A stretch of 64,000 bases of DNA from an uncultured Gammaproteobacteria bacterium (GCA_965230895.1 OZ246394.1:569316-633315), one strand, 5' to 3'. Shown: positions 1 through 64,000, numbered from the stretch's first letter. The notes: generated by a model not told the origin, from the letters alone. Numbers and translations are program-made.

Positions 1-192
1 GGTGATATTAAAGGTTACGTTAATGGCGAACAGGTGAATAATATTTTGGATGTTCGTATTAAACCATATGATAGTACTGTGATATTTGTTGGAGAGCAGC
101 CTGCTGAATCAGATGGTCTTCTTAGTAAAGCTGTTAAAAAAGACGAAATAGTGAAAGCTGAAAAAATGAGCGAGAACTGTGGTTCAAATTAA
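1..192 (+). CDS. 3' end of an upstream gene of unknown function (partial, runs off the left edge)
   Basis: Open frame 1 from the window edge to TAA at 190-192; the next gene starts 6 nt later. Confidence 0.4.
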   Translation, partial: GDIKGYVNGEQVNNILDVRIKPYDSTVIFVGEQPAESDGLLSKAVKKDEIVKAEKMSENCGSN

Positions 193-197
193 GCAAT

Positions 198-863
198 ATG
201 TCAGGTGAAGCAAAAATATTAATAGGAGTAAGTATCGTAACAATTGTTATGGTTATTGGAGCAGCGTTGTTACTTGGCGGCGTGTCTTCTCGAAATACTA
301 CCACTGAAGAAAAGGTGATTCTTACAAGTGAACAACAAAAAAGTCTTGCAAAGGAAGATAGTCAAAAGATTACCGTACCAAATGCTAAAGTAACAATCGT
401 TGAATTTATTGATTACGAATGTGAAGCTTGTGGTGCTGCTCATCCAATTGTTAAGCAAATTTTAGAAGAATATAAGGGTAAAGTGAATTTTGTCGTTCGA
501 AATTTCCCAAATCATAATAATTCCGTACTTGCAGCTAACATAGTAGAAGCTGCTGGTGAGCAAGGCAAATACTGGGAAATGCATAATAAACTTCTTGAAT
601 CACAACAGGAATGGGGAGAGAAAAAAGAACCACAAACAGAACTTTTTCTTAAATATGCTCAAGAATTGAATCTTGATATTGATAAAGTGAGAGCGTCATT
701 AGAAAGTAATAAATTTACTACTAAAATAAACAAAGACAAGGAAGAAGGCATTGCAATCGGCGTAAATGCTACACCCACATTTTTCATAAATGGCGAGATG
801 CAAGTTGGAGGACTTCCTTATGATGAATTTAAACAAAAAATAGAAGAGAAATTGCGCAATTAA
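198..863 (+). CDS. Membrane-anchored DsbA-family thiol:disulfide oxidoreductase (thioredoxin fold, CxxC)
   Basis: N-terminal hydrophobic anchor, then the motif FIDYECEACG (CxxC) in a thioredoxin/DsbA-like context, e.g. ATPTFFINGE near the C-terminus. Confidence 0.75.
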   Translation: MSGEAKILIGVSIVTIVMVIGAALLLGGVSSRNTTTEEKVILTSEQQKSLAKEDSQKITVPNAKVTIVEFIDYECEACGAAHPIVKQILEEYKGKVNFVVRNFPNHNNSVLAANIVEAAGEQGKYWEMHNKLLESQQEWGEKKEPQTELFLKYAQELNLDIDKVRASLESNKFTTKINKDKEEGIAIGVNATPTFFINGEMQVGGLPYDEFKQKIEEKLRN

Positions 864-905
864 AATCCAATATACAAAACATCTCAAAATCGATACAATA
901 AAATA

Positions 906-1505
906 ATGAATCATACACTGCGTAGAAAGGCACTTTTCTTATCTTACTTTACTGTTGGATATAATATAGTAGAAGGACTAGTCTCCATTGGAATAGGTTT
1001 AATGACTGGAAGTACTGCTTTGATTGGATTTGGCTCTGATAGCTTTATTGAATCTCTATCTGGAAGTGTAATGATTTGGAGATTTAGCAAACATATAGAA
1101 AACAAAGAGCATGAGGAGAAAATTGAAAGAAATGCGCAGAAACTTGTAGCCTTTACATTTTTCATCTTAGGATCGTTTGTTTTATATGAATCAGTCAAAG
1201 ATTTATTTCTTCAAGAGGCACCTGAGCCGAGCCTAATTGGCATTGTAATTGCAGTACTGTCGCTTATTATTATGCCGACATTAACCTATTTTAAATATCA
1301 AACGGGCAAGCAACTGAAATCAAAAAGTTTAGTTGCTGATTCAAAACAGACGTTGGTATGTGTGCTTATGTCTGCAGCACTTCTCATAGGATTAAGTTTA
1401 AATTATTTGTTCGGCATTTGGTGGCTTGATCCTATTGTAGGACTTATTTTTGTAGTTATTCTTTATCATGAAGGCTATGAATCTTACAAAGGTGAGGAGG
1501 ATTGA
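906..1505 (+). CDS. Cation diffusion facilitator (CDF) family transmembrane domain protein; lacks the cytoplasmic C-terminal domain
   Basis: TGSTALIGFGSDSFIESLS matches the CDF TM2 signature (TGSxALxxDAxHxLxD-like); about 6 predicted TM helices; only 199 aa. Confidence 0.6.
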   Translation: MNHTLRRKALFLSYFTVGYNIVEGLVSIGIGLMTGSTALIGFGSDSFIESLSGSVMIWRFSKHIENKEHEEKIERNAQKLVAFTFFILGSFVLYESVKDLFLQEAPEPSLIGIVIAVLSLIIMPTLTYFKYQTGKQLKSKSLVADSKQTLVCVLMSAALLIGLSLNYLFGIWWLDPIVGLIFVVILYHEGYESYKGEED

Positions 1506-1513
1506 CATAGAAG

Positions 1514-2395
1514 ATGAGTGGTCGGCATGAAGCTCCAAGCAATCTAGATAACAAATTAAAGCTAGGTATGTTCTTAAATGCCAGTTTTACCCTGTTTGAA
1601 TTTATTATTGGAGTCCTGTCAGGCAGTTTGGCTTTAATATCTGATGCTGGACATAATTTAACAGATTCACTTAGTCTTATTATCACATTTATTGCACAAA
1701 AGATTGCAAAACGGAGTGCAAACATTGAGCATACCTATGGATATGGCAGATCAACAATATTAGCTGCGCTTCTTAATGGTCTAATCTTATTCTTGTTGGC
1801 GTTTTATATCTTTTATGAAGCATACGAGCGTCTACAGAATCCTCAACCCGTTGCAGGAGGTTTGGTAGTCATTGTTGCTGTCGTTGGTGTGGTTATTAAC
1901 TTTAGTGTAGCTTCTTTATTCAGACATGATCGAGATGATCTTAATATACGAAGTGCTTATACCAATATGCTCTTTGATGCATTAGCTTCTGTTGGTGCTG
2001 TTATTGCTGGTATTCTTATAATTATAACTAAGCAGCCATACTTTGATTCATTGATAAGTATACTTATTGGGATACTACTCCTTAGAAGCAGCTGGGGTGT
2101 TGTACGAGACGCAACACATGTACTGTTAGAAGGAGTTCCAGAAGGAGTCAATGTTTCAAAGGTAAAAGAAACTATACTGAATGCACGACATGTTAAAGGT
2201 GCAGATGATTTACATGTTTGGGCAATCTCCTCAAGACACGCTGCTTTAAGTTGTCATATTGTAATCGAGGATTGTGATGTAGAGAAAAGCAGCCGAATTG
2301 TGAAAGAAATTAAGGAAAAACTTAAGAATAAATTTTCTATAGAGCATGCCACTATTGAAACAGAACTTGTTGCATGCGACCCAAAAAATGAGTAA
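1514..2395 (+). CDS. CDF family divalent cation efflux transporter (CzcD-like), full length with C-terminal domain
   Basis: LSGSLALISDAGHNLTDSLSLII and HTYGYGR motifs; TM domain followed by a cytoplasmic domain. Confidence 0.8.
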   Translation: MSGRHEAPSNLDNKLKLGMFLNASFTLFEFIIGVLSGSLALISDAGHNLTDSLSLIITFIAQKIAKRSANIEHTYGYGRSTILAALLNGLILFLLAFYIFYEAYERLQNPQPVAGGLVVIVAVVGVVINFSVASLFRHDRDDLNIRSAYTNMLFDALASVGAVIAGILIIITKQPYFDSLISILIGILLLRSSWGVVRDATHVLLEGVPEGVNVSKVKETILNARHVKGADDLHVWAISSRHAALSCHIVIEDCDVEKSSRIVKEIKEKLKNKFSIEHATIETELVACDPKNE

Positions 2396-2963
2396 AAAAC
2401 CAAATATAATAAAATTAGTAGCTTCTATTATTCTCTTACTATTTTTTGTTATACCCCCGAACGCGTTTGCTCATGATGGACAGAGTCAATTAATTGGAAA
2501 ATACTGGGTTAGTATCGAACAATACCCCCTATCACCTTTTGTAGATGAGAATGAGCAAATCTCATTCGATTTAGAAACTGTAACCCGTAAACCAGCTGAA
2601 GGGGTAAAAGGTAAGCTAATTATTAAAGAAACAACATCTGATCAGTTTGTTGGTAAAGAATCAGTAGTTGGTAGTAAGATCATTCATGAAGAAGAGGGAG
2701 TTACAGATGCCAGCGGGAGCGTTGGGATTTCCTATACATTTCAGAAAGAGGGAGTTTATGATATTGAATATGTTTGGGGTGACAATGAGGATGCAGAAAG
2801 TGCGGGATTACAAATTTTTGTTAGAGAACCGACTTCTTATTTTCTACCGCAAGAGTTAGAAAAGCGGATATGGCTATTTATAGGAATTGCGATGGCTGGA
2901 ATGGCAGCAGGGACATTTTTTACATTTGTATTACTAACAACTACTTTACATCCAAAACGATAA
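2388..2963 (+). CDS. Exported hypothetical protein with signal peptide and C-terminal TM anchor
   Basis: Internal ATG at 2388 gives MSKKPNIIKLVASIILLLFFVIPPNAFA, a Sec signal. The ORF-track start at 2346 overlaps the CDF gene. C-terminal hydrophobic helix FIGIAMAGMAAGTFFTFVLL. Confidence 0.5.
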   Translation: MSKKPNIIKLVASIILLLFFVIPPNAFAHDGQSQLIGKYWVSIEQYPLSPFVDENEQISFDLETVTRKPAEGVKGKLIIKETTSDQFVGKESVVGSKIIHEEEGVTDASGSVGISYTFQKEGVYDIEYVWGDNEDAESAGLQIFVREPTSYFLPQELEKRIWLFIGIAMAGMAAGTFFTFVLLTTTLHPKR

Positions 2964-3042
2964 GTTAAAAAAATAACTCAGGCTACTGGTCATGATTTCA
3001 TTTGCACTTTGAGGCTAGACTTCTGGAAAGCTTTGCGGTACC

Positions 3043-3231
3043 TTGTACCTGATGAATAAAGAATTACCAGAAGAAAAGATCGAAGAAACAGTCAATATGC
3101 TTGAACTATGTGCGTTAGTATTGAAGTTCTATACATCCACAAGGGAATTGAAGTATATTATTGAATTGAATACAGCAGTAAATAGACTCCACTCCCTATT
3201 CCCACGAAAGGAAAAAAATGAGTCCTGTTGA
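3043..3231 (+). CDS. Small hypothetical protein immediately upstream of, and overlapping, the recombinase; possible accessory or directionality factor
   Basis: 62-aa ORF, 14-nt overlap with the recombinase start; no recognisable motif. Confidence 0.2.
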   Translation: MYLMNKELPEEKIEETVNMLELCALVLKFYTSTRELKYIIELNTAVNRLHSLFPRKEKNESC

Positions 3232-4519
3232 GTATTGCTTGTATGCACGAAAATCAACAGAGGATGACGAGCGTCAAGCCATGTCAATCGACTCTCAGAT
3301 TAAAGAAATGACTGATTTGGCTATCAGAGACAATCTTTTCATTAAAGAAGTACGAACTGAGAAACATTCTGCTAAAGCATCTGGAAACCGCCCTGTCTTT
3401 GCCAAGCTCCTCGAAGACATTCGAAGCGGTGAATTTAGCGGTATTCTGACTTGGGCACCTGATCGACTAAGTCGTAACGCAGGAGATTTGGGTATGCTTG
3501 TCGACATGATGGATCAAGAAAAACTCCATCAGATACGAACATTCTCACAGTCATTCTCAAATAACCCAAATGAGAAGTTTTTGTTGATGATCCTTTGTTC
3601 TCAAGCAAAGCTAGAGAACGATAATCGGGGCATCAATGTAAAAAGAGGCATGCGAGCAAGATGTAGTATGGGTTGGCGACCGACAGTACCTCCTCTAGGA
3701 TATCTAAGTCAACTTGATAAATCAAACCCTCAGCTTATTATTATTGATCCTGAGCGAGCGTTTATTGTCAAACAGATATTTGATAAAGTTGCAAATCAAG
3801 GACAAAGTGGAAGAACAGTTAAACGGTGGCTTGATAGAATTGGCTTTGAGACCAGAACAGGTAAAAAGCTTGCACTTGGCAATATCTATACCATCCTCAA
3901 AAACTCCTTCTATTACGGCAAATTTGAATACCTTGTAAATAGTGGCACATGGTATGAAGGGAAACATGAACCACTGATTACAAAAGAATTATTCGATAAA
4001 GTACAAATCCAACTGCAAGTACCACCAAAAACATGGAGAAAAAACATTTTTCCTTTCAAAAAGATCTTTATTTGCGGAGGATGCAATGGAGGCATCACAG
4101 CTGAAGTAAAGCAAAAGAAATTAAAATTGGGAGGATATACAAAACACGTTTATTATCATTGCGCCAGATCAGTTGATTATGAGTGTGATGAACCCTACCT
4201 AACTGAAGAAGAACTTATCAGACAACTTATCTTTAATATTGATCAGATTAGCTTTAATCTTTCAGGAATGACAAGAAAAATTCAGGAAGATATTGAAAGA
4301 TATCATAGGCTCAAATTAGAAGTTCTAAATATGGAATATTTAACTGGAAATTTACAAGAATTAAGACCAAGGGTAGATAATGAAGAAAGACAAATAATGA
4401 TGAAGAATTATCTTAAACATATTCTAACAATTGGAACTTCAGAAGAAAGACAAGAAATCCTCACATTTATTAAAACCAAGTTCATTCTTCAAGATAGGCA
4501 CATAGTCATATCGAAATAG
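3218..4519 (+). CDS. Large serine recombinase (resolvase/invertase catalytic domain, recombinase domain and zinc ribbon)
   Basis: N-terminal YARKSTEDD with catalytic Ser and the RLSRN motif of serine recombinases. C-terminal CGGCNGG...HC zinc-ribbon-like segment. 433 aa. Confidence 0.85.
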   Translation: MSPVEYCLYARKSTEDDERQAMSIDSQIKEMTDLAIRDNLFIKEVRTEKHSAKASGNRPVFAKLLEDIRSGEFSGILTWAPDRLSRNAGDLGMLVDMMDQEKLHQIRTFSQSFSNNPNEKFLLMILCSQAKLENDNRGINVKRGMRARCSMGWRPTVPPLGYLSQLDKSNPQLIIIDPERAFIVKQIFDKVANQGQSGRTVKRWLDRIGFETRTGKKLALGNIYTILKNSFYYGKFEYLVNSGTWYEGKHEPLITKELFDKVQIQLQVPPKTWRKNIFPFKKIFICGGCNGGITAEVKQKKLKLGGYTKHVYYHCARSVDYECDEPYLTEEELIRQLIFNIDQISFNLSGMTRKIQEDIERYHRLKLEVLNMEYLTGNLQELRPRVDNEERQIMMKNYLKHILTIGTSEERQEILTFIKTKFILQDRHIVISK

Positions 4520-4699
4520 CCTCAGAAACCGCAATTTAATCTAAAGGACTCCGCAATATTTACGAATAATTTACGTTCTACGGGGCTATTACTTACGGGA
4601 TGTAAAATAGAATATGTCAGAATCGAGAGAAATTTTAGCAAGTACCAGCAAGCTAATCAAGGATAGCAGCATAGTCAATACTGAACACTATAGGATTAG

Positions 4700-4771
4700 T
4701 GAGCCCCTGGGGATTCGAACCCCAAACCAATACCTTAAGAGGGTACTGCTCTACCGTTGAGCTAGAGGCCC
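4700..4771 (-). tRNA. tRNA-Lys (anticodon CTT)
   Basis: The reverse complement folds as a cloverleaf: acceptor GGGCCTC/GGGGCTC, D-arm GCTC-AACGGTA-GAGC, anticodon loop CTCTTAA, T-arm TGGGG-TTCGAAT-CCCCA, discriminator A. Confidence 0.85.
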
Positions 4772-4905: not shown

Positions 4906-6123
4906 ATGGAGAAAATTCACATGCATCATAAACGAATTGGAAAGAAACATATACTCATACTCTTTTTCTCTCTTTTTATTCTTATGGGCGGATTAATCCT
5001 GACGCTTAATCAAACACAAATTCGTCAAGATCAAAGAAGTCTCGCAGCTGGAGACTGTACAGTGGACGAAACACAATTACAAACAAAGCCACAAGAGCAA
5101 GCTCTTTTCGATCTCATCAATGCCTATCGAACACAAAATGGATTACCAGTATTGAGTTGGAGTCCAGCATTGAGACGACCAGCAGCTTGGCTTAGTGCAG
5201 ATATGTCTAGGACAAGAAACTTAAGCCACACTGATTCGTTAGGAAGGCTTCCTGAAACAAGACTCCCTGATTGTGGTTTTCCATTGTCAACAAGTTATGG
5301 GGAAAATATTGCGAACGGAGATGCAACAGCACAGTCAATATTGGATGCTTGGAAAACTTCTCCTCCACATAATCAAATAATGTTAAGCGCAAGCTATACA
5401 CAAGGAGCAATTGCCATGGAACTTGATACAACAGGTGTAGCATATTGGACACTCGATGTTGGAGGTACATTTAATACAAATCCTACGACAACAATCAATC
5501 CCACTTCAGGGACAAATCCGACAATAGCGGTGACATCGGCTCTGTCTCCAATGCCTTCAGACATGATTACTCCGACAAAGGGTTCATCAAATGGAAAACT
5601 TCCGACCCCAACACTTGGACCAGAAGGTGTTGATGTCCAATTATCCGTGCGAGTAAAGATCAGTGGTATTGGAAGAGATGGAAATGTCACTCCGAAGAAT
5701 TTGACGAGAAAGGTTTCAGCAGCAATATATGGATTGGGTGAGGCACCTGTTACTACAGGAAATGCATTCTTAACATACGACGGACAAGACTACTTTAGTG
5801 GCATTATACGACTGGGCAAACTTACACAAGGAGTATATTTGGTTAAATTATCGACAGATAATTCTCTTCAGACTTTAGCTCGACCAGAATTCCAGACTAT
5901 TATGATCGATCGAGTCAATGAAATCCCTGCTGTAATGCTCTATCCAGGAGATATGAATAGAGACAATGTACTTAACCTTGCAGATTACAATGAAGTGCTT
6001 CCATGCTTCCAGAATAAGAAATGTGATACTGCAACGGTTATTGATTTCAATGACGATTCAACAACAGATGTTAAAGACTACAACTTATTCCTTCGAAGCT
6101 TTAGTCAGCAACCTGGAAATTAA
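4906..6123 (+). CDS. Secreted or membrane-anchored CAP/SCP (PR-1-like) domain protein with a C-terminal dockerin-like double calcium-binding-loop module
   Basis: N-terminal TM/signal. CAP motifs include GENIANGD and HNQIMLSASYTQGA. The C-terminal segment DMNRDNVLNLAD...IDFNDDSTTDVKDYNLFLRSF fits the DxNxDxxxNxxD dockerin repeat pattern twice. Confidence 0.7.
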   Translation: MEKIHMHHKRIGKKHILILFFSLFILMGGLILTLNQTQIRQDQRSLAAGDCTVDETQLQTKPQEQALFDLINAYRTQNGLPVLSWSPALRRPAAWLSADMSRTRNLSHTDSLGRLPETRLPDCGFPLSTSYGENIANGDATAQSILDAWKTSPPHNQIMLSASYTQGAIAMELDTTGVAYWTLDVGGTFNTNPTTTINPTSGTNPTIAVTSALSPMPSDMITPTKGSSNGKLPTPTLGPEGVDVQLSVRVKISGIGRDGNVTPKNLTRKVSAAIYGLGEAPVTTGNAFLTYDGQDYFSGIIRLGKLTQGVYLVKLSTDNSLQTLARPEFQTIMIDRVNEIPAVMLYPGDMNRDNVLNLADYNEVLPCFQNKKCDTATVIDFNDDSTTDVKDYNLFLRSFSQQPGN

Positions 6124-6136
6124 TACATAAATCAGC

Positions 6137-7771
6137 ATGGTAAAGAAAGAGAGTAAAAAACAGATCATAAAAATAGTAACGCAATATGGTGTCCATATCT
6201 GGGCAATTCTTATCATTGCAAATGCTGCGCTTGCATACGCTTTTCATTTTTCAACCCAAGCAGCTAGTAAGCCTGCGACAACCCTTGAAGAAAGTCTTGG
6301 ACCAAGAACTACCGAAGATGAATTAGATGCAACTCCATCAGCAAAAATCTCGCCTACAAAAGCACCGAAGCCAAAAGGAGGAACTATTGATCTTACTTTC
6401 AGAATTCCAGGTATTGGGAGTGATAGTGCAGTAATGGCACCAAAGCGTTTGGAGAGAAATGTAACTGTATTCCTTTATTCACCGGATAGTAATTCTCTCA
6501 ATAATTCAGTGAAGCCACTCTATACACTGAAGACGACAGCACAATTTGATACCAATACTCTGAGTCCGACATATACAAGTTATCTAGTCAAAGGATTAGA
6601 TTTTGGAACAGATGTGAAAGATGGAAGATATCAAATTGTTTTCCGCACCGATGAATCCCTCCGCACTATTATTAAGGAAAGCCCGACAAATATCGGAGGA
6701 CAATTATTTGAAATCACAAAATCAGCGAAGATCCGTCGAGTACCAACACAGACAGTGTTTATGGGAGATACGCTACCGAAGGAAGGAGATAATGTCGTAG
6801 ATATCAGTGACTATAATGCGTTTGTTAATTGTTTTGGAGAACGCAACTCATCATCATTTTGTATAGGAAATAATTATGGTGATTTCGATGACAATGGTGT
6901 TATTGATGGTGTCGATTATAATTTACTTTTACGTTCATTCCAGGAACTTTTGAAACAAGGCCAATCAATTCCAAAGGTATCTGTAGCTCCAACTTCAGGT
7001 CCACAACGGGTATCAAGATTAACAAGTATTACACCAACTGCAGTTAAAGAGAAAGTCTCACCTACGAAAGCACCTCAACAAACTGTACAAACAAAATCGA
7101 GTGGTAATGTTCTCGGCGGAATCCTCTTCTTTATTTTTCTCTTAATCGTTGGAGCAATACTCTTTATTCTCTTTAAGAAAAATGAAAAATTCCGAAATAC
7201 TATTCTGGCATTGTTACACAAATCTCCTGTCGGACCAACACCACCAGCACAACCAGCAGATCCAAATGCTCCAGTCGATCCAAATACACCTCCAGCAGAT
7301 GGCGCAGCTCAAGCAGATCCGACAACTGTTGCAGGACCCCCTACGGCAGACGCAACAGCAGCAACAGAGGAAACCCAGTCTGATCCAAATGCGGTGGCAG
7401 CCTCTACAGAAATCCCTGTGGAGTCAGTCGCAACGCCAACAGAAACAACACCTCCGCCAGCAGAACCAGCTGCTGATCCTTCAGCTATCGCTGCTTCAAC
7501 TGAAATTCCAGTTGCTGCAACACCTCCTGTAGATCCTGCGCGACCAACCCCTGCGGATGGAGAAACTGTAGAACGAGATTGCTATGTGAAGAAGAAGTTA
7601 CCGGGTGATGCATCTGGTGTATGGCTCACATTAACGGACGACAATGGGGCATTGGAAGCACATTACGCAAAACCTGATGTCGAAGAAGGATTCGCGAAAG
7701 TCAAAGGTGTTATGAAGACGGAAAATGGCAAGACCTATCTTGAAGTTTCAGAAATTATTGGTGAAGGTTAA
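6137..7771 (+). CDS. Membrane protein with dockerin-like module, internal TM helix and Pro/Ala/Thr-rich linker
   Basis: VDISDYNAFVNCFGE...GDFDDNGVIDGVDYNLLLRSF is homologous to the module in the upstream gene. TM at GGILFFIFLLIVGAILFILF. Low-complexity PA-rich stretch 7200-7560. Confidence 0.6.
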   Translation: MVKKESKKQIIKIVTQYGVHIWAILIIANAALAYAFHFSTQAASKPATTLEESLGPRTTEDELDATPSAKISPTKAPKPKGGTIDLTFRIPGIGSDSAVMAPKRLERNVTVFLYSPDSNSLNNSVKPLYTLKTTAQFDTNTLSPTYTSYLVKGLDFGTDVKDGRYQIVFRTDESLRTIIKESPTNIGGQLFEITKSAKIRRVPTQTVFMGDTLPKEGDNVVDISDYNAFVNCFGERNSSSFCIGNNYGDFDDNGVIDGVDYNLLLRSFQELLKQGQSIPKVSVAPTSGPQRVSRLTSITPTAVKEKVSPTKAPQQTVQTKSSGNVLGGILFFIFLLIVGAILFILFKKNEKFRNTILALLHKSPVGPTPPAQPADPNAPVDPNTPPADGAAQADPTTVAGPPTADATAATEETQSDPNAVAASTEIPVESVATPTETTPPPAEPAADPSAIAASTEIPVAATPPVDPARPTPADGETVERDCYVKKKLPGDASGVWLTLTDDNGALEAHYAKPDVEEGFAKVKGVMKTENGKTYLEVSEIIGEG

Positions 7772-30496: not shown

Positions 30497-31531
30497 ATGA
30501 AAAAGTTAATCTTCTTAATTAGTTTCCTTTTACTTGCCCTCTTCACAACTTTCAATACCACTCCAACATATGCTCAAGTAGTCCCAACCAATTGTGATCA
30601 ACAAATGAATATGGATGGGATGAATATGCCACAACCGTCTTGTCCTCCAGCACCAACTCCAACAGTTGCGATAAATCCTGATGCTGCAAATACACCAGTT
30701 GTCCGCAAAAATATCTATAGTATGACACCAGATGAGTTAAATAGATTTATCAATGCGTTAAATACAGTTCGAGCAAATGGTTCGTATAATCGATTTATGG
30801 ATGAGCATATGCAAGCGATGATGATGAGAACTCCCGCAGATGACACTTCTACATTAAGAAATGCCGCACATCGAGGACCAATATTTTTGCCTTGGCATAG
30901 AGCATTTGTATGGGAATTCGAACAACTATTAAGAACTGTTGATCCAACTGTATCCATCCCATACTGGGCTTTCGAAAATGAAACTCCAGGAACTATACCT
31001 ATGGTATTCTCTGCAAACTATTTTGGTGGCGATGGAAACATTGCGCAGGGTGATAGAGTTACTGATGGACCTTTCGCTTCATGGGGAATTACGAGGAGAA
31101 TAGGCCGAGACGCACAAGGTCAACCAACACTTCCAACCGCGGGAGATATTGCAACAGTATTACAGATCAATGATTATGATACCCCACCATACAATGAATC
31201 TTCACAAGGTTTTAGAAACGCACTAGAGGGATGGATTGGGACAAATGCTCCATGGGGAGTTCATAATAGAGTTCACGGATATATCGGTGGAGATATGCTC
31301 CCTGATGGCATGAGTGGTAATGCTGTTAACGATCCTATCTTTTGGGTTGTTCATACAAACATTGATCGAATCTGGTGGCAGTGGCAACAGACTCATGGAA
31401 TAACAAATTACCAACCTGTTGTCGGTGGACCTGAAGGACATAATCTTAATGATGTGATGTTTATCCTCCCAAGTCAGGGAACAGCGTCAAATACTTTAGA
31501 TATAAATCAGATGAACTACACGTATAACTAA
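30497..31531 (+). CDS. Secreted tyrosinase / type-3 copper polyphenol oxidase
   Basis: Sec signal MKKLIFLISFLLLALFTTFNTTPTYA. CuA motif HRGPIFLPWHRAF. CuB motifs HNRVHGYIGGDM and DPIFWVVHTNIDRIWWQWQ. Confidence 0.85.
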   Translation: MKKLIFLISFLLLALFTTFNTTPTYAQVVPTNCDQQMNMDGMNMPQPSCPPAPTPTVAINPDAANTPVVRKNIYSMTPDELNRFINALNTVRANGSYNRFMDEHMQAMMMRTPADDTSTLRNAAHRGPIFLPWHRAFVWEFEQLLRTVDPTVSIPYWAFENETPGTIPMVFSANYFGGDGNIAQGDRVTDGPFASWGITRRIGRDAQGQPTLPTAGDIATVLQINDYDTPPYNESSQGFRNALEGWIGTNAPWGVHNRVHGYIGGDMLPDGMSGNAVNDPIFWVVHTNIDRIWWQWQQTHGITNYQPVVGGPEGHNLNDVMFILPSQGTASNTLDINQMNYTYN

Positions 31532-54442: not shown

Positions 54443-54925
54443 TTATCGAGTAACTTGGATTGGTGGAGTATATGCACTTGGTGCTGAAACTGTTATTCTA
54501 TTATTTGTATCTCTTGTAATTGTGTAACCTGTGTTCCATGTTCCTGCGCATTCACCAGCTTCAACTCCTGCCTGATCATTAAGTGTTGGATCCATTGGAA
54601 GTGCTGGCATATAATTTGGTACTAACTGAGCACAAAGAGCACCTAAATCGGCCCCACTTTGCAATGGGGTTGGGTCATTTACATCCAAAGCCTGAACAAG
54701 CGGCGGTAATTGCCCAGTATTTGATGCTGTATATTGTCCGATTGCATTAAGAATCTGAGTAACATCACTTCGACGCTTTGTATCATTTGCTTGGCCAAAT
54801 TGTCGTGCAGGGTTAATAGCGATAAGTGTGATTGCTAAAAGGATAGCGAGGATACCGATTACAACGAGTAATTCGATGAGTGTGAAACCTTTTTGGTCTT
54901 TGTTAAATATTTGTCGGACAGTCAT
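54443..54925 (-). CDS. Type IV major pilin, paralog 1
   Basis: Class III leader and cleavage site NKDQKG|FTLIELLVVIGILAIL with Glu5; about 160 aa; C-terminal Cys pair. Confidence 0.85.
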   Translation of the reverse strand: MTVRQIFNKDQKGFTLIELLVVIGILAILLAITLIAINPARQFGQANDTKRRSDVTQILNAIGQYTASNTGQLPPLVQALDVNDPTPLQSGADLGALCAQLVPNYMPALPMDPTLNDQAGVEAGECAGTWNTGYTITRDTNNRITVSAPSAYTPPIQVTR

Positions 54926-54970
54926 GTTTTGTTTTGATCAAGTTATCTTGATCTGTATCTATTATTGTCA
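54926..54970 (-). promoter_or_regulatory. Conserved pilin 5' leader with perfect 18-nt palindrome gatcaagttatcttgatc (54936..54953)
   Basis: A nearly identical 45-nt stretch precedes both pilin start codons; the second copy is at 56561..56605. Confidence 0.5.
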
Positions 54971-55076
54971 GAGTCGGTATATCCTGTCAATATGTCTAAA
55001 TAGTCAAAAATATATTTAAATAGATCAGTTTACTTTTCAAGAAATTATTTGAATCTAAAAAAGATAATGATGTATT

Positions 55077-55406
55077 TTGATCATCTTGACACAGACTCAA
55101 CCTTTACTTCATTATAGATATATAATGTTGAAACCAACGAAACATCATGAACCACTAAGTAGCGCAAAAGCAATTATTGCAATACTGGTTTTAGGTATCG
55201 CTTTTGTACTCTTTTATAAGTTCATAACAAATCAGGAATTCTTCTTGGATGATCCAGAAGCTCTTCGAAACTACGTCATCTTTACTATTACAGTAAGTGG
55301 GTTCTTAATTGGGCTTCTTTACCTCACAAGCCAGACAAAGCACAAAGCGAAAACAAAATCCAAGTCAATTTCAAAAGCTAAGCCTACTAAAAAGAAGAAG
55401 AAATAA
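55077..55406 (+). CDS. Small membrane protein with Lys-rich C-terminus
   Basis: Two hydrophobic helices and a KKKKK tail; the start is uncertain (ATG 55077 or 55125). Confidence 0.3.
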   Translation: MIILTQTQPLLHYRYIMLKPTKHHEPLSSAKAIIAILVLGIAFVLFYKFITNQEFFLDDPEALRNYVIFTITVSGFLIGLLYLTSQTKHKAKTKSKSISKAKPTKKKKK

Positions 55407-55421
55407 CTTTTAATTTTCTTT

Positions 55422-56042
55422 CTACAATTCCCTTGCAATTACTCTTGTTGGTGCACCATCTGCTTTTAGTTTTATCGGTAGCGCAATAACTTCAAACGCA
55501 TCCACTTCTAATAGTTGTCCCACGTTTGTTAAATTCTCAAGAATAAATATCTCGTTTGTTAAAAGTATCTTATGAACAATCCAAGGTTGATCAGCGTCAG
55601 GACCGGACATATCCATTCCCACTCCACTTATGTTATGTTCCACCATCATTCTTGCAAAGTCTTCAGCAATCACAGGAGCATTACTGAAGTAATCTTCCTG
55701 CCCATACTTTTCACCAAAACCCGTATACAAGAGAACTATCGAACCTTCTTTTAATGCAATTCCATCAAGAACAGATCCATCAATAATATCCTTTCCCTGT
55801 ACATCGAGTACTATTCCATTTCCAATAAACTTCTCTACAGGCAATGCGTCAATTGTTTTGCCTCCAGCAATCATATGCAATGGAGCATCCATGTGTGTCC
55901 CGACATGCATAACAGTCGTAAGCTTATGATCGTTAAAACTATTTTCTTTAATGCTTGCGACCTGTTCTATTTGGGGCTTCGGATCACCAGGAAAGACTGG
56001 TATATCATCAGAGAAAGTATGAGATAAATCAAATAATTTCAT
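55422..56042 (-). CDS. Cyclase-family protein (kynurenine formamidase-like metal-dependent hydrolase)
   Basis: Motif HVGTHMDAPLHM (HxGTHxDxPxH) typical of the cyclase/arylformamidase family. Confidence 0.75.
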   Translation of the reverse strand: MKLFDLSHTFSDDIPVFPGDPKPQIEQVASIKENSFNDHKLTTVMHVGTHMDAPLHMIAGGKTIDALPVEKFIGNGIVLDVQGKDIIDGSVLDGIALKEGSIVLLYTGFGEKYGQEDYFSNAPVIAEDFARMMVEHNISGVGMDMSGPDADQPWIVHKILLTNEIFILENLTNVGQLLEVDAFEVIALPIKLKADGAPTRVIAREL

Positions 56043-56083
56043 AAAGAAGAGTATACAAAAGAATTGTAAAGATTATTGAAGAA

Positions 56084-56560
56084 TTAGCGAGTTACTTGGA
56101 TTGGAGGAGTGTATGCACTTGGCGCTGATACTGTTATTCTATTATTTGCATCTTTTGCAACTGTATATCCAGTGTCCCATGTGCCCGCGCAGTCACCAGC
56201 TTCAACTCCAGCTTGATCGTTAAGAGTTGGATCCATTGGAAGTGCTGGCATATAATTTGGAACTAATTGTCCACAGAGGGATGGGAAATTTGTACTATTG
56301 AGTGCGGCTGAACCACTTGCAAGAGCTTGAACATTTGGAGGCAATTGGCCTGTATTAGATGCTGTGTATTGTCCGATTGCGTTAAGAATCTGTGTTACAT
56401 CACTTCGACGCTTTGTATCGTTTGCTTGTCCGAATTGTCGTGCTGGATTAATTGCGATAAGAGTGATAGCTAAAAGAATAGCGAGGATACCAATTACAAC
56501 GAGTAATTCTATGAGTGTGAAACCTTTTTGATTTTTATTAAATACTTCTCGGACAGTCAT
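56084..56560 (-). CDS. Type IV major pilin, paralog 2
   Basis: MTVREVFNKNQKG|FTLIELLVVIGIL. N- and C-terminal thirds are near-identical to paralog 1. The ORF-track start at 56614 reads through the conserved untranslated leader. Confidence 0.85.
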   Translation of the reverse strand: MTVREVFNKNQKGFTLIELLVVIGILAILLAITLIAINPARQFGQANDTKRRSDVTQILNAIGQYTASNTGQLPPNVQALASGSAALNSTNFPSLCGQLVPNYMPALPMDPTLNDQAGVEAGDCAGTWDTGYTVAKDANNRITVSAPSAYTPPIQVTR

Positions 56561-56660
56561 ATTGTTTTTGATCAAGTTATCTTGATCTGTATCCATTATT
56601 GTCATAATGCTCAACTGTTGTCAATAGAGCAAAAATTGAAAAAAAATCGAAAATTCAAGG

Positions 56661-57800
56661 CTATTTACCTAGGATAATCGTAATATCATTATCGCCTTCT
56701 TGTCTTTCTTCTACAGTGATATTTGGTCTTATTTTTTCAACTTCCTCAAGAATTGCGGTGCGGGTAGATTGAGTTACAGTCCCAGCAAAAAAAATAACTG
56801 ATTCTGAATTTCTAGTACTACTCCTTGTTTGCGTAGTTATGTCTTTGAATTTATATGTTTCAAGAGCGGTCCGTAAAGGCGCAGAACTAGAAGCAGAAGA
56901 ACTGACAATTTGAACGGTAAGATTTTCAAACTGAACTGGTTCAACCGGTGGAACTGTCGGCGGTACAGTTGCTACAGGGGCAGTCTGAGGCATAACAGTT
57001 GGTTGAACCGTAGCTTGGGGCGCTGGTGGTTGCATGCTTTGCATGTAAACGATAACCAGAACAACCAGTAAAATTACTAATATTCCAATCATTCCTATTA
57101 ATCGTTTCTTATTTGTCTTTGGTGGTTCTTTCCCTTGCGCTAATTCTTCCTGAACTTCGTCAACAGATTCTTCCTCTTCTTTTTTTGCCGGAGTAAATGC
57201 AGCTTGGGTCTTAATATCATATTGCTTCAAACTTGGAGTTTTCTGAATTGTCGTATTGATGAGATTCATGTCCATCGGTTTTGCACTCAATTCCCCACCC
57301 AATACCATTCCCGGAAAAACAGAGGCAATAGTAAAGCCAAGCTTTTCAAATGCTCGTTCAATGGTTGCATAGAGATCCTGATTGACTGCACAAACACGTA
57401 TACCATTTTTTAGTGGGAATGTTTTGCTCACCACATTTTCATAAGGAACATGTTCGATAAACATATCAATCTGAGGTTTTAAATCAGCAATTGTTGTTTT
57501 AGGTGTGGCAGTTGGTACAGGCTGTCCAGATTTTACTGGCTGCTGAGCTGATTGCGGAGGAATGATAAAGTCTTTCACGAAATAAGCATTATCTGCGAGT
57601 ACGATAATGAAGTTACTTGGAGGGATTTTGTTATTTGTTACTAAAATCTTTATTTGCTCTTCAAGCTTGTCATCATTTAATACATCCAAGTCCCGCACAA
57701 TATCTGGAGGAAATCGATATTCCACAAGTGATTTTAAATAAGGTGAATATAATTGAAATTTATCTTTTTGGAGATAGATTACTCCTGTTCTTACTGCCAT
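56661..57800 (-). CDS. Bitopic pilus-assembly-like protein (cytoplasmic N-domain, TM, Pro/Thr/Val-rich periplasmic region); PilM/PilN/PilO-like role is inferred
   Basis: TM helix LIGMIGILVILLVVLVIVYM near residue 230; position inside the pilin operon. Confidence 0.3.
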   Translation of the reverse strand: MAVRTGVIYLQKDKFQLYSPYLKSLVEYRFPPDIVRDLDVLNDDKLEEQIKILVTNNKIPPSNFIIVLADNAYFVKDFIIPPQSAQQPVKSGQPVPTATPKTTIADLKPQIDMFIEHVPYENVVSKTFPLKNGIRVCAVNQDLYATIERAFEKLGFTIASVFPGMVLGGELSAKPMDMNLINTTIQKTPSLKQYDIKTQAAFTPAKKEEEESVDEVQEELAQGKEPPKTNKKRLIGMIGILVILLVVLVIVYMQSMQPPAPQATVQPTVMPQTAPVATVPPTVPPVEPVQFENLTVQIVSSSASSSAPLRTALETYKFKDITTQTRSSTRNSESVIFFAGTVTQSTRTAILEEVEKIRPNITVEERQEGDNDITIILGK

Positions 57801-57801
57801 A

Positions 57802-58224
57802 TTAGAAAGCCTCTTTCTCTGACGTAACCGTCAGTTGATTATTTATATACGTTGCTCGGACCTCAACAGTTCTTTTGAAATTACCGACTGTTCCAGTTGA
57901 TGTAATAATATACGGACTCCCCGATGTGCCACTCCCTCCTACGGTTATAACTGCCTGACCTTGACCGATTGTCAAAGTTTCACCCGTATACGTTGTGGGT
58001 GTACGAAGTAGTCGCAATAATCCGTTCTCTGCCCCACTCTGCGCAACTTGATACGCAACTTCTCCCTGTTGTTGTCTTGTTCCACTATTTGAATTTATCA
58101 AGATCATAACAATTGCCGCAGACGTAATCGTTAGTCCAATAATCATAAAGAACAATAGCGTTATAAGCGCTTGCCCTCGTTGATATGAGAGCGATAATTT
58201 CTTAATTACTTTACCACTTCTCAT
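57802..58224 (-). CDS. Minor pilin / pseudopilin-like protein (non-canonical +1/+5 residues)
   Basis: QRG|QALITLLFFMIIGLTI prepilin-like N-terminus lacking Glu5; 140 aa. Confidence 0.5.
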   Translation of the reverse strand: MRSGKVIKKLSLSYQRGQALITLLFFMIIGLTITSAAIVMILINSNSGTRQQQGEVAYQVAQSGAENGLLRLLRTPTTYTGETLTIGQGQAVITVGGSGTSGSPYIITSTGTVGNFKRTVEVRATYINNQLTVTSEKEAF

Positions 58225-58775
58225 TGTCTTGCTAAAGTTGTCTGGAACGACCTTGATTCTGCACCCGACGGCTGCTGAATCCTACTCACCACAGTGAAAT
58301 TCACCCGAATTGTATCATTACTATCTCCTGCTCCAATCCGTTGGAAAGATAAACCTGTAAGGTATGAGTTAGCTCCGTTTAATTTATTTACTTCTCCGGT
58401 TGATCCATTTGTGAGGAGAAGATTTCCCCCACTATCAAGGCTATAGGTATAGTTTATAGAATTTACCCGTATTTGCAAAGTAGACGAAGTCACTCCTGGA
58501 GATGCTGGAGTAGTTATACGATCACCTGATGGAGAAGCACTTATGGATTTCATATCATAAAACAACTTGCCCATGATATATCTTCCATCCTGATCAACAA
58601 CGGATGTTGATTCTGATTCCAACTGAACTTCAACAATCTGTCCAAACATCGTACTCATAATACCAACGAGTATTGAAAGAATTCCTACATACAAAACTAA
58701 TTCGATAAGTGTAAATCCTTTTTGCCTTTTTTGAGAGGATACCTTGGCAGCAAAAAACTTCTGAAAAAATTTCAT
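58221..58775 (-). CDS. Minor pilin / pseudopilin
   Basis: KRQKG|FTLIELVLYVGILSILVG with Glu5; 184 aa. Confidence 0.7.
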   Translation of the reverse strand: MKFFQKFFAAKVSSQKRQKGFTLIELVLYVGILSILVGIMSTMFGQIVEVQLESESTSVVDQDGRYIMGKLFYDMKSISASPSGDRITTPASPGVTSSTLQIRVNSINYTYSLDSGGNLLLTNGSTGEVNKLNGANSYLTGLSFQRIGAGDSNDTIRVNFTVVSRIQQPSGAESRSFQTTLARQ

Positions 58776-58829
58776 ACCTACATTGAGCGTACTGGTTTAT
58801 GTGAGGATATTCAAGAGGAAGATAATTAT

Positions 58830-61073
58830 TTACGAACCACCATTGGATCCACCTGAACCGGACCCGCCGTTTTGATCTCCTTGAAGTTGATTAATCAAGC
58901 TTGTAATATCAGTGTACAATAAATTATATCCTTCAACTGTTATACTCTTCCCTTTTTGTTTATTGAGTTCCACAAGCATAGCTTTCAAAGTTATAATTGC
59001 GAGCTTATTTCCCAATGGTTGTCTGTTGATTAATGTAGCTCTTTCTGCAACTTCAGCTTGCACTTTGAGTGCTGTATAAAATATAACGTTTTTAATTTGC
59101 TTCTGCTGGTAGAGTTTCTTGATGTCATCTTTTAGAATATTAAAGGTAATTTCACGGATAGGTTCTGTTTTAATATTATTTATATTTTCTTTATCATATG
59201 AAAGTTTATATACAGCCTCTGTTTCAGGAGTTAGATTACCCGTATAGGAAGCGGTTTTCATTTCCCCTTCCTCAGTAAATATATACTCATCCAATTGATA
59301 ATCTGGATCGGTTGCGGAGTAAAGTTCTACTCTATAATTGCTTGATTCTGGCTTTGCAAAATAGAATACCTTTACAGCTGATGTATTTGTATTAAATGGT
59401 TCTTCTACAAGTTGTGCAGGACTGTACTCCAAATAACTTTCCCCATACGTAGCTCCATTCTCATCACGAACAGTTATATAAACATCTTTATCAGCGACAT
59501 AAACCATGTAAGATAGATCAGTATGTGAAGGAATATATCTTCTAACCGATACTGCTTGGTTATTATATGAGGCAAGGGTTGTTCTATTAAATAGCGGATC
59601 ATTTATTTCAAAAGTATTGCCAGTTTTACCTTTCGCCACAACGAAATGCATACCAGGAGCATTTACTTGTAAAATATTAGGAATACCTTGATTTAAATCA
59701 TTTGTTAAAGTCGTTGTATTGAAGTACATATCAGGATTATACTCGAGAGCATCATATTGAAAGTTTGGGTTCTGCGACTTTGCTTTTTTAGCTAGATTCC
59801 CCACAGCGGACCATATAACTCCTAAATTACGATTATAGCCCTTATTTTCTTTCAACCATTTGTTTACGGTTCCTGGATTAACATCACTTCCGTCTGGCAT
59901 TTTGTTAATCCCATGATATCTTAAAATCATTGCAATTGAACTTGTAGCGCATCCACACTGCGTCATAGTCCTTCCACAGACAAACTGCCCAGCATTAGCG
60001 TGATCAAATTCTTCTGCCTCCCATGCAGGATTATTGTCATTATATGGAGCAACTCCTTGCTTAAATAAAGGTACATTTAAACTTGCTCCACCTATTGGAG
60101 GGGTTGGGATCATAGAAGGGAGAGGATTTGTAATTGTTTTTGGGTCAAAAGTACTAATTTTATCAAATTGTGCAAACCAAATATTACCGTCTGGGCCAGA
60201 AGTTATGTCATACACTGCACCTGAAGTATCGTATTCAATTACGTCTCCATTTTGTTGAAATTTTCCAATTATTTTTGTATTAGATCGTGTATACCATAGA
60301 GCATCATCTGATCCTAAAGTGAGTTGATCGACGTTTGGTTTAAATATTGGGTATTCAGTTATATCTCCGTGGTAAGTTATATTAGCGATTTTATTTCCAC
60401 CGTATTCTGTAAACCAAATATTATTGTTTGGGCCAAGAGCTATTCCTGTTGGGGAGCTTGAAAGAGTAGGTATTGTAAATTCAGTAATAACCCCTGTTGG
60501 AGTTATTCTTCCTATCTGATTGTCATTTGACTCAGTGAACCAAATATTGCCATCAGAACCACTAACAAGACGGACCAGTCCGATAAATGATGACGCTGGC
60601 AACTCAAAGTACATAACTGAACCACTACTGGATATTCTACCAATCTTATTTGTATTCCCAGAAGAAAACCACATATTATTATCTGGACCTAAAATAATAT
60701 CATCAGGAGCAAAATTATTATCAAGTTGATATTCAGTTATTGAACCATTTATTGTAGACCTTGCTACTTTATGAGAATTAAACTCAGTAAACCAGACATT
60801 ACCATTATTATCGCTAACAATCGAATTCGGCCTACTATATGGAGATGGTATTGTGTACTCTGTCACTATACCGGATATAGTAACTTTTCCTATCTTATTT
60901 GTTTCTATTGCAGTATACCAAATATTTCCGTCAGGACCTGATGTAATACTGGACACATTACTTCCATAAGGTAGTTGATAATCCTTGATACTAGAAGCCT
61001 CTGCAGTAGAACTAGCAAATAAAAAAAGTATAAACAAAGAAGTCACTAGACTAAAACGAAAAAAATTAATCAT
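58830..61073 (-). CDS. Secreted multidomain protein: 7-bladed Vgb-lyase-like beta-propeller, papain-like peptidase_C39-like domain and C-terminal beta/helical region
   Basis: Sec signal. Seven repeats of the form GPDGNIWFTE...NKIGRIT. Then QFVCGRTMTQCGCATSSIAM (Cys), GMHFVVAKG (His) and INDP (Asp/Asn). Gly/Ser tail. Confidence 0.6.
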   Translation of the reverse strand: MINFFRFSLVTSLFILFLFASSTAEASSIKDYQLPYGSNVSSITSGPDGNIWYTAIETNKIGKVTISGIVTEYTIPSPYSRPNSIVSDNNGNVWFTEFNSHKVARSTINGSITEYQLDNNFAPDDIILGPDNNMWFSSGNTNKIGRISSSGSVMYFELPASSFIGLVRLVSGSDGNIWFTESNDNQIGRITPTGVITEFTIPTLSSSPTGIALGPNNNIWFTEYGGNKIANITYHGDITEYPIFKPNVDQLTLGSDDALWYTRSNTKIIGKFQQNGDVIEYDTSGAVYDITSGPDGNIWFAQFDKISTFDPKTITNPLPSMIPTPPIGGASLNVPLFKQGVAPYNDNNPAWEAEEFDHANAGQFVCGRTMTQCGCATSSIAMILRYHGINKMPDGSDVNPGTVNKWLKENKGYNRNLGVIWSAVGNLAKKAKSQNPNFQYDALEYNPDMYFNTTTLTNDLNQGIPNILQVNAPGMHFVVAKGKTGNTFEINDPLFNRTTLASYNNQAVSVRRYIPSHTDLSYMVYVADKDVYITVRDENGATYGESYLEYSPAQLVEEPFNTNTSAVKVFYFAKPESSNYRVELYSATDPDYQLDEYIFTEEGEMKTASYTGNLTPETEAVYKLSYDKENINNIKTEPIREITFNILKDDIKKLYQQKQIKNVIFYTALKVQAEVAERATLINRQPLGNKLAIITLKAMLVELNKQKGKSITVEGYNLLYTDITSLINQLQGDQNGGSGSGGSNGGS

Positions 61074-61119
61074 AGGCCTATGTATATTTATATAATACTT
61101 TTGTATTATATTTCAATAC

Positions 61120-63624: not shown

Positions 63625-64000
63625 ACCTATTTAATCGTAGAACTTTCTGATCATTATTCATACTGTCATGAATCGTAATAACAGCTGACGTACTTGCATA
63701 ATTTGTAACTTCTCCACTCCCTTTTGTAAATGTTATCGATGAACTTGCGGAAGCTGTTGTTATAGTTAATGTGTTCGGATATGATACTGCGAAATTAGCT
63801 GAAGCAGTGGCTACATATGTACCTTTATATAGTATATATCGATGATTTGCCGAATCAAATTGGATACCATAATTATCAGCAGTTGTTGTACCACTTGTGT
63901 CACCAGACATAGCTTTTGCTTGTTGATCTTTCAGATCTGCCATAAATGTATTTAAGGTAGAATTAAGCTGTGATTCATTTTGGAACCTGAACAAGCTAAC
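63599..64000 (-). CDS. Pilin-like or pilus-associated protein, 3' part (the N-terminus lies beyond the window edge)
   Basis: The ORF is open to the window end and Ser/Thr-rich like its neighbour; the first Met in the track is probably not the true start. Confidence 0.35.
   Translation of the reverse strand, partial: VSLFRFQNESQLNSTLNTFMADLKDQQAKAMSGDTSGTTTADNYGIQFDSANHRYILYKGTYVATASANFAVSYPNTLTITTASASSSITFTKGSGEVTNYASTSAVITIHDSMNNDQKVLRLNRYGVISSMQ

Follow-up and report, generated by a model that had tools for sequence, protein, structure and literature searches.

Two adjacent genes in a 64,000-nucleotide stretch of bacterial DNA (GCA_965230895.1 OZ246394.1:569316-633315, deposited under the name of an uncultured Gammaproteobacteria bacterium; we refer to the whole stretch as the window) encode proteins that, we conclude with high confidence, share a unit that is homologous to dockerins in its C-terminal part and has a two-domain fold like that of an X-module plus dockerin dyad (XDoc). 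XDocs are known from cellulosomal scaffoldins, in which a rigid unit made up of an immunoglobulin (Ig)-like sandwich and two F-hands docks with high affinity, and in a Ca2+-dependent manner, onto a type-II cohesin. The two genes, which we call A and B, lie on the same strand with 13 nt between them. An earlier reading of the window made from the sequence alone (the sequence-only reading) had described their products as adjacent surface proteins sharing a Cys-containing, dockerin-like block of ~55 residues; the limits it gave for both open reading frames (ORFs) are correct, and it is the nature and extent of the shared unit that change in the analysis presented here.

Comparison of the two proteins by BLASTP (E=2e-15) aligned residues 191-401 of A with residues 44-270 of B, which indicates that the shared unit comprises ~170-200 residues rather than 55; judged from this alignment, the similarity between A and B is far beyond chance. 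A scan of the sequence confirmed that the block described previously (DYNEVLPCFQNKKCDTATVIDFNDDSTTDVKDYNLFLRSF in A, DYNAFVNCFGERNSSSFCIGNNYGDFDDNGVIDGVDYNLLLRSF in B) is carried by both genes, and this block corresponds to the C-terminal third of the unit. A regular-expression scan of all six reading frames found no further copy of the motif block in the 64 kb window outside of A and B. Three features of the proteins had been missed, namely a beta-sandwich that precedes the dockerin in both A and B, a transmembrane (TM) or signal segment at the N-terminus of B, and a 69-residue domain with a predicted oligonucleotide/oligosaccharide-binding (OB) fold at the C-terminus of B.

The curated libraries Pfam and NCBIfam contain no dockerin-family model that matches A or B at threshold. 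Pfam Dockerin_1 gave no match to A and a score of 16.1 bits on B, below its cutoff of 22.9, and the sole dockerin signal in NCBIfam came from NF041540, which scored 16.0 bits on A and 15.7 bits on B against a cutoff of 29. Because both proteins miss the Dockerin_1 threshold, the dockerin assignment rests on profile and fold evidence. A profile of the dockerin half of the unit (33 sequences, C-terminal third) matched, over its full length, ~25 solved dockerin chains of types I and II in the PDB, with a best E value of 6e-7; the chains matched from end to end include 2b59_B, 2y3n_B, 3kcp_A, 2yik_A, 4fl4_A and ~20 more. At the bottom of the PDB match lists stood weakly matching EF-hand proteins (sarcoplasmic Ca-binding protein, S100 and SCaMC; E 0.0085 to 0.21). 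When the C-terminal 169 residues of A were compared with PDB sequences in a single-sequence search (phmmer), the XDoc chains of CipA, 3kcp_A and 2b59_B, were recovered at E ~1e-3, and the A. cellulolyticus XDoc chains 4wi0_B and 4u3s_B were aligned across both domains at E=0.03 only. A word-indexed homology search with the A module returned no matches.

The fold of the unit points in the same direction. An AlphaFold2 (AF2) model of the A unit, based on a 34-sequence family alignment (pLDDT 92.7, pTM 0.87), has eight beta-strands and, after them, two helices (module positions 122-132 and 153-164), and in this prediction the X-module-like sandwich is packed with the dockerin as a single body. 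A Foldseek search of the PDB with the model returned nine matches at E<=1e-3, all of them dyads of an X-module and a type-II dockerin (5k39_B, 4u3s_B, 5g5d_B, 3kcp_A, 4wi0_B, three chains of 4fl4, and 2b59_B), with 162-186 aligned columns and a query-normalised TM-score (TMq) of 0.51-0.60. The matches that follow cover the sandwich only and are Ig-like or transthyretin-like domains, including carboxypeptidase D. According to Brás et al., the XDoc consists of a 98-residue, seven-strand X-module that is like domain II of carboxypeptidase D, together with a two-F-hand dockerin (PMC5141474); since the Foldseek matches fit this description, we take the unit of A and B to be an XDoc-like dyad. A profile of the beta-sandwich (the N-terminal two-thirds of the unit) found no match among PDB sequences. 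The bare dockerin of 55 residues that had been proposed is thus replaced by a type-II XDoc-like dyad of ~165-200 aa.

Within the dockerin, the Ca2+-ligand positions 1, 3, 5, 9 and 12 are conserved in both loops family-wide. The 3-residue insertion seen in loop 1 of B is common to about half of the family. A four-residue insertion is present in loop 1 of the solved type-II dockerin of A. cellulolyticus ScaA (PMC5141474), and the insertion in B is therefore no argument against Ca2+ binding. Directly after each Ca2+ loop the family carries a near-invariant D-Y-N that is not seen in classical dockerins. The Cys pair noted earlier proved to be conserved: the first Cys is found in 141/143 family sequences (99%) and the second in 132/143 (92%). 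The first marks the C-terminal end of helix 1, the second comes 6-10 residues later in the linker between the repeats, and the pair probably closes this linker loop by a disulfide. The window contains a gene for a DsbA-like oxidoreductase (198-863), which is compatible with disulfide formation outside the cytoplasm.

The unit is not confined to A and B, and the scenario by which the sequence-only reading would have been refuted, a repeat limited to these two proteins, thus does not hold. An exhaustive HMMER search with a profile built from both proteins retrieved 1763 cluster representatives (clusters defined at 50% identity) at E<=1e-3, 604 of them at E<=1e-10, and on this profile evidence the XDoc module forms a large uncurated family. 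Among the 150 best of the 1763 representatives, the unit lies at the extreme C-terminus in 87, and in 52 it is placed as in B, near the N-terminus of a protein composed of a TM segment, the unit, a second TM segment, a Pro/Ala-rich stretch and a conserved C-terminal domain. We scanned 91 relatives that are not of the B type with Pfam. Dockerin_1 matched 31 of these at E<=1e-3 (best 2.4e-12), a CAP domain was present in 23 and a Cohesin domain in 7; other domains found include VWA, GH5 cellulase, CBM4_9, ricin lectin, peptidoglycan (PG)-binding, SdrD_B and phosphoesterase. Together with the match of the family profile to solved dockerins, the Dockerin_1 matches among relatives uphold the previous identification of a dockerin homologue with loops of the form D-x-N-x-D-x3-[DN]-x2-D. 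Of the B orthologues and two further family proteins, those that bear a name come mostly from Candidatus Levybacteria. The family is divergent, has a predicted disulfide staple, and is abundant in bacteria of the candidate phyla radiation (CPR) that belong to the Levybacteria/Microgenomates group.

The closest known counterparts are the XDocs of C. thermocellum ScaA/CipA, C. thermocellum CipB and A. cellulolyticus ScaA (2b59, 3kcp, 5g5d, 5k39, 4u3s and 4wi0), which are the sole significant fold matches of the A unit. These have the same size of ~165 aa and the same construction, in which an Ig-like sandwich of ~100 aa and seven or eight strands is packed on a dockerin of two F-hands, and the Ca2+ loops of A are canonical. 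The CipA dockerin, too, carries a Cys where helix 1 ends (VIRCFNATKG in CipA, VLPCFQNKKC here), and A. cellulolyticus ScaA shares with the B-type proteins an insertion in Ca2+ loop 1. In contrast to the cellulosomal XDocs, to which identity is only 14-18% in the Foldseek structural alignments, the family described here has a second conserved Cys, and hence a linker that is probably closed by a disulfide, and a near-invariant DYN after both loops; it is found in a CPR bacterium and not in a cellulolytic Firmicute; and the dyad is borne by cargo such as CAP, VWA and lectin proteins, or by a TM protein with a predicted OB fold, rather than by a multi-cohesin scaffoldin. A itself carries a CAP domain, B is a membrane protein, and neither contains a cohesin. 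Like type-I dockerins (PF00404, Dockerin_1), the family has duplicated 22-residue loop-helix segments and a C-terminal position on secreted cargo, and, as noted, a third or so of the relatives scanned match that model; its internal symmetry (DYN...L..F in both helices) recalls dockerins with a dual binding mode. Type-I dockerins are standalone modules, however, whereas here the preceding X-module is obligatory, the Cys pair is present, and neither A nor B is a Dockerin_1 member. The 'GC-type dockerin domain-anchored protein' family NF041540, to which A and B likewise do not belong, is similar in that its dockerin variant serves as a C-terminal anchor.

The product of gene A is a CAP protein. 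Pfam PF00188 matched with an E value of 1.6e-15 and 58.4 bits (cutoff 21.1) over model positions 1-116 of 117, as the sequence-only reading had anticipated, and an NCBIfam YkwD-family model matched the same domain below threshold. A hidden Markov model (HMM) of the XDoc family matched A at E=2e-50, and the combination of CAP and XDoc recurs in each of the 23 relatives with a CAP domain. Orthologues of A are found at 81% identity in locus L001 and at 37% identity in locus L009, in each case adjoining an orthologue of B.

Protein B is built differently (Table 1). Because the XDoc is expected to be extracellular, being Ca2+- and disulfide-dependent, and because the second TM helix is flanked by the basic sequence KKNEKFR, the region that follows this helix is predicted to be cytoplasmic. 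The sequence-only reading had described an internal TM helix and a Pro/Ala/Thr-rich stalk; both elements are present, but the stretch, which contains 27 Ala, 27 Pro and 16 Thr in 120 residues, comes after the TM helix and KKNEKFR, and it is probably an intracellular tether rather than a surface stalk. The 69-residue C-terminal domain is modelled by AF2 as a five-strand barrel (pLDDT 93.6), and its top Foldseek matches are all OB folds (RecO, RPA32 and the anticodon-binding domains of aminoacyl-tRNA synthetases) with TM-scores of 0.6-0.78 and E values of 8e-3 or weaker; a sequence profile of the domain found nothing significant in the PDB (neuropilin, E=0.16). B thus probably spans the envelope and has a binding module on either side of the membrane. 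Tethers of the ZipA type consist of a TM helix, a flexible Pro-rich linker and a small cytoplasmic binding domain, and the cytoplasmic half of B, with its TM helix, Pro/Ala-rich linker of ~120 residues and small globular domain, is laid out in a similar manner; B differs from ZipA in that its globular domain is predicted to be an OB fold and in that it has a large extracellular XDoc, and we claim no homology between the two. The literature that we searched contained no description of the predicted B-type architecture of extracellular XDoc, TM helix, cytoplasmic tether and OB fold.

Table 1 Features of genes A and B and of the gene convergent with B (positions in the window)
Feature	Nucleotides	Residues	Strand	Basis or remark
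Gene A, CAP-domain protein, secreted or anchored in the membrane, with an XDoc at the C-terminus	4906..6123	405 aa	+	ORF
A, N-terminal hydrophobic segment, signal peptide or signal anchor after basic residues	4942..5016	13-37	+	Kyte-Doolittle scan and flanking charges
A, CAP / SCP / PR-1-like domain	5107..5457	68-184	+	Pfam PF00188
A, X-module-like Ig-type beta-sandwich	5614..5925	237-340	+	AF2, eight strands; Foldseek, together with dockerin, to 5k39_B, 4u3s_B, 5g5d_B, 2b59_B
A, dockerin module	5926..6120	341-405	+	profile against PDB dockerins E=6e-7; AF2 helices; family conservation
A, Ca2+ loop 1, DMNRDNVLNLAD	5950-5985	349-360	+	canonical, then helix
A, Ca2+ loop 2, DFNDDSTTDVKD	6043-6078	380-391	+	canonical, then helix
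A, Cys pair		C367/C373		
Gene B, conserved two-TM envelope protein with XDoc, Pro/Ala-rich tether and predicted C-terminal OB fold	6137..7771	544 aa	+	ORF
B, N-terminal TM segment or signal anchor, basic N-terminus	6188..6253	18-39	+	hydropathy, charge
B, X-module-like beta-sandwich, ~20 residues longer than that of A	6365..6736	77-200	+	alignment with A; XDoc HMM E=9e-72
B, dockerin module	6737..6949	201-271	+	Pfam Dockerin_1 16.1 bits; family dockerin HMM E=7e-31
B, Ca2+ loop 1, GDTLPKEGDNVVDISD				with 3-residue insertion
B, Ca2+ loop 2, DFDDNGVIDGVD				canonical
B, Cys pair		C232/C242		
B, second TM helix, then KKNEKFR	7109..7177	325-347	+	hydropathy 3.19; positive-inside rule
B, acidic Pro/Ala/Thr-rich linker, predicted cytoplasmic	7202..7561	356-475	+	net charge -14; topology inference
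B, C-terminal domain with predicted OB fold, conserved in B-type proteins	7562..7768	476-544	+	AF2, Foldseek; HMM in all B orthologues
Convergent neighbour of B; Gly/Ser-rich N-terminus, long low-complexity middle, conserved C-terminal ~120 aa	7768..9819	683 aa	-	

B has 72 close orthologues, and those from conventionally submitted metagenome-assembled genomes (MAGs) are named Candidatus Levybacteria or Levyibacteriota, which indicates that the window comes from a CPR bacterium. The rest of the window reads as the chromosome of a small-genome bacterium, with UvrABC, MutSL, NAD synthase and type-IV pilus genes. The closest relative in the genome collection is L001 (CAZDOJ010000001.1), which is labelled 'uncultured Gammaproteobacteria' and in which the orthologues of A and B (81% and 77% identity, respectively), the GC content of 38% and the synteny match the Levybacteria-type window. 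This label therefore looks wrong, given also the Levybacteria names of the orthologues just mentioned, and the labels 'Acidoferrales' and 'Sulfotelmatobacter' on several proteins from third-party annotation (TPA) MAGs are similarly doubtful.

The surroundings of B, a housekeeping neighbourhood, are kept in L001 and in three further loci, L007, L008 and L009, each of which has B, a convergent gene of 500-680 aa, RNase HII and DUF2130. CofD lies downstream in L007-L009, and genes for holin-like, SecG and SBP_bac_5 proteins also occur in some of these three. A, in turn, adjoins B in the window and in L001, and also in L009, a distant locus with a B of 35% identity; it does so neither in L007 nor in L008. 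Since the neighbourhood of B is conserved while the adjacency of A varies, we regard B as the core gene and A as an accessory cargo gene. The gene convergent with B overlaps it by 4 nt, and its product has no Pfam or NCBIfam match and no signal peptide. A gene occupies the same position and orientation in L001, L007, L008 and L009, with similarity confirmed only for L001 (36% identity) and for the C-terminal ~120 aa in L007. The protein evolves fast, its 36% identity in L001 comparing with 77% for B and 91% for RNase HII, and it is a possible cytoplasmic partner of the OB domain of B.

On the other side of gene A, directly upstream, is a tRNA-Lys(CTT) gene (4699-4771, minus strand), and 180 nt from it is a gene for a large serine recombinase (Resolvase, Recombinase and Zn-ribbon domains; 3218-4519, plus strand). 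In L001 the tRNA-Lys is in the same place, whereas the recombinase and the block of DsbA, cation-efflux and unknown genes (198-4519 in the window) are absent, across 10 kb upstream, which suggests an integrated element or a rearrangement at the tRNA-Lys in the genome from which the window derives.

If the A and B dyads act as their cellulosomal counterparts do, a cohesin should receive them. Like the sequence-only reading, we saw no cohesin-like gene nearby: Pfam searches of practically all ORFs of at least 120 aa, and searches of six-frame ORFs with two HMMs, the first derived from seven CPR cohesins and the second from nine, identified none in the window, and a probe of the window with a cohesin sequence gave no match. 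A cohesin-profile search returned three hits, none of them on the 1.61 Mb NCBI contig that holds the exact sequences of A and B. The DNA beyond the window consisted of short Logan contigs, which added 8 kb on the right. One candidate for the missing cohesin was the beta-sandwich itself, and this we rejected, as the Pfam cohesin of relatives that have one is N-terminal and separate from the sandwich and dockerin, the sandwich profile matches no cohesin, and the fold is that of X-modules and transthyretin-like domains, not the nine-stranded jelly roll of cohesins.

Cohesins do occur in the same lineage and among the relatives of A and B. Three family proteins, P0103, P0140 and P0050, combine an N-terminal Pfam cohesin with a C-terminal XDoc, and P0140 comes from Candidatus Levybacteria. 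The locus of P0140 (L011; Levybacteria MAG GCA_016204425.1, 839-5772) consists of three adjacent genes, which encode a putative anchor of 189 aa with an N-terminal TM segment and a single cohesin (Pfam Cohesin 30.4 bits, cutoff 24.1), a putative adaptor of 640 aa composed of a cohesin and an XDoc, and a putative cargo protein of 774 aa with VWA, SdrD_B and XDoc domains, the last of which scores 28.5 bits with Dockerin_1, above the cutoff. By its domain content this locus is a minimal cellulosome-like set that follows the anchor, adaptor and cargo logic of the cellulosome without cellulases. A similar small cohesin protein (204 aa) is encoded in locus L010 after a 724-aa Asn/Thr-rich repeat protein.

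Taken together, these findings make cohesin-mediated surface assembly plausible in the genome from which the window derives. A would be exported, and its CAP domain would be shown on the cell surface once the XDoc had docked onto an envelope protein that bears a cohesin and has its gene elsewhere in the genome. B would be a core envelope protein that exposes its XDoc on the outside and, by means of its second TM helix and the flexible, acidic Pro/Ala tether, holds the OB-fold domain in the cytoplasm in a ZipA-like manner, so that it could link an assembly of cohesins and dockerins on the outside with a partner on the inside. Together these parts would amount to a non-cellulosomal surface-assembly system of the cellulosome type, the most plausible use of which to an episymbiotic CPR cell would lie in organising its envelope or attaching to its host. 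We consider it somewhat better than an even prospect that A is displayed in this way and that B presents an XDoc outside and an OB fold inside.

Several observations weigh against this interpretation. A cohesin was found neither in the ~72 kb made up of the 64 kb window and the 8 kb past its right end (Pfam and CPR cohesin HMMs) nor at distances of up to 10 kb from the B orthologues in L001 and L007-L009. B is itself anchored in the membrane, the reverse of the cellulosomal layout, in which the anchored partner is the cohesin. The lack of a Dockerin_1 match on A and the sub-threshold score of B count here as well, as does the fact that loop 1 of B, owing to its insertion, is without an Asp at canonical position 1. 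The OB-fold matches of B are weak (E 8e-3 or weaker), and the disulfide, the binding of Ca2+ and the topology of B are all predictions.

The lack of a nearby cohesin, which extends over five genomes around A and B or the orthologues of B, speaks for the possibility that the XDoc binds something other than a cohesin (peptidoglycan, an S-layer or a host glycan, for example) and is a generic Ca2+-dependent anchoring or adhesion module of dockerin ancestry. The scarcity of cohesins among relatives (7/91, against 1763 XDoc clusters) would be in keeping with this, the near-invariant DYN after both loops fits one common ligand better than it does many co-evolving cohesins, and Wang et al. speculate that a Saccharibacterial dockerin protein targets glycans (PMC10633639). 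For the membrane-anchored B, however, such anchoring would be redundant. Moreover, the adjacency in L011 of a TM-anchored cohesin, a cohesin-XDoc protein and an XDoc-bearing cargo protein is the layout expected for cohesin-dockerin pairing, and the dyad in its entirety, cohesin-contacting helices included, can be superposed on XDocs that have been solved with cohesins. We therefore think a non-cohesin ligand rather unlikely.

Less likely again is a direct heterodimer of A and B, formed through the X-module or the dockerin of their XDocs, in which B would be the membrane receptor for the CAP protein and no cohesin would be needed. This would account for the position of the two genes, 13 nt apart on the same strand, for the recurrence of that adjacency in L001 and the distant L009, and for the fact that B has no room for an extracellular domain besides the XDoc. 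Against it, L007 and L008 have a B with no A beside it, XDocs are found on many unrelated cargo proteins, the B type is far more conserved than A, and the literature that we consulted does not report dockerin-dockerin pairing as a mechanism. The notion that the module is a generic EF-hand-like Ca2+-binding repeat without a docking function, to which the few weak EF-hand matches lend something, is already disfavoured and can be given hardly any credence, because ~25 dockerin chains rank higher with full-length alignments, the fold search is significant only for XDoc dyads, and the unit comes with a conserved partner domain of Ig-like fold and sits, as dockerins typically do, at the C-terminus as a 'cargo tag'.

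Other genes in the window deserve mention in their own right. The gene at 2346-2963 (plus strand) lies directly after two cation-efflux (CDF) genes and encodes a protein of 205 aa without a family match, which consists of a signal peptide, a beta-rich domain of ~120 aa and a C-terminal TM anchor. Its size and layout are like those of the membrane-anchored cohesins of L010 and L011, yet it has zero score against the cohesin HMMs; its predicted mature end starts at a His, and it may be a metal-binding envelope protein. The right-hand part of the window (54443-63994, minus strand), extended by L013, is a type-IV pilus/pseudopilin cluster. Besides several genes of the N_methyl prepilin-like kind, it encodes two unannotated proteins (834 aa and 379 aa) and a 747-aa protein with a Vgb_lyase beta-propeller and a peptidase C39-like part; PilB/PilC-like genes lie just past the end of the window, and an envelope apparatus of this sort is typical of CPR bacteria. 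At 30497-31531 (plus strand) the window encodes a protein with a tyrosinase domain (PF00264, E=2e-37), which is unusual for a reduced CPR genome.

Dockerin-like and cohesin-like modules have been noted outside cellulosomes before. Our search of the literature on dockerins in connection with CPR, Patescibacteria or Microgenomates returned incidental mentions, the titles and abstracts of which point to no XDoc family, no Cys pair and no B-type architecture. The nearest parallel is SEML1_0315 of the cultivated Saccharibacterium Southlakia epibionticum, which Wang et al. (2023) describe as a dockerin-domain envelope protein that is essential for growth on the host; it is encoded by a 2784-nt gene and has several Ig/FN3-like domains (PMC10633639). 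A and B resemble SEML1_0315 in being envelope proteins of a CPR bacterium with a dockerin-type domain, and the essentiality of SEML1_0315 suggests that it acts in the envelope or in the interaction with the host.

Extending cohesin-mediated display beyond A and B, we tentatively propose, as a possibility that we hold to be distinctly short of probable, that Levybacteria and other Microgenomates may possess a cellulosome-like, non-cellulolytic surface assembly made up of anchored single cohesins, of adaptors that join a cohesin to an XDoc, and of dozens of cargo proteins with an XDoc tag (CAP, VWA, lectins and glycosidases). The universally conserved B-type protein would then be an envelope-spanning coupler that leads from the external scaffold, by way of its disulfide-stapled XDoc, to a cytoplasmic OB fold, which might bind nucleic acid or a protein of the cytoplasm (conceivably the neighbour of 500-680 aa that always adjoins B), and the system would be part of the machinery for host attachment or envelope organisation.

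The CPR bacteria, or Patescibacteria, make up a large share of bacterial diversity and are thought to live attached to hosts, and how their surface proteins are organised is almost unknown. Proteins like A and B are annotated as 'hypothetical' because they are invisible to curated models at threshold. Cohesin-dockerin pairs can be expressed and assayed in vitro, and XDoc units with their predicted disulfide staple could serve as orthogonal parts for designer scaffolds. If the proposal is true, XDoc tags on CAP, VWA, lectin and glycosidase proteins, together with anchored cohesins, would constitute a concrete and testable logic for the assembly of the CPR cell surface.

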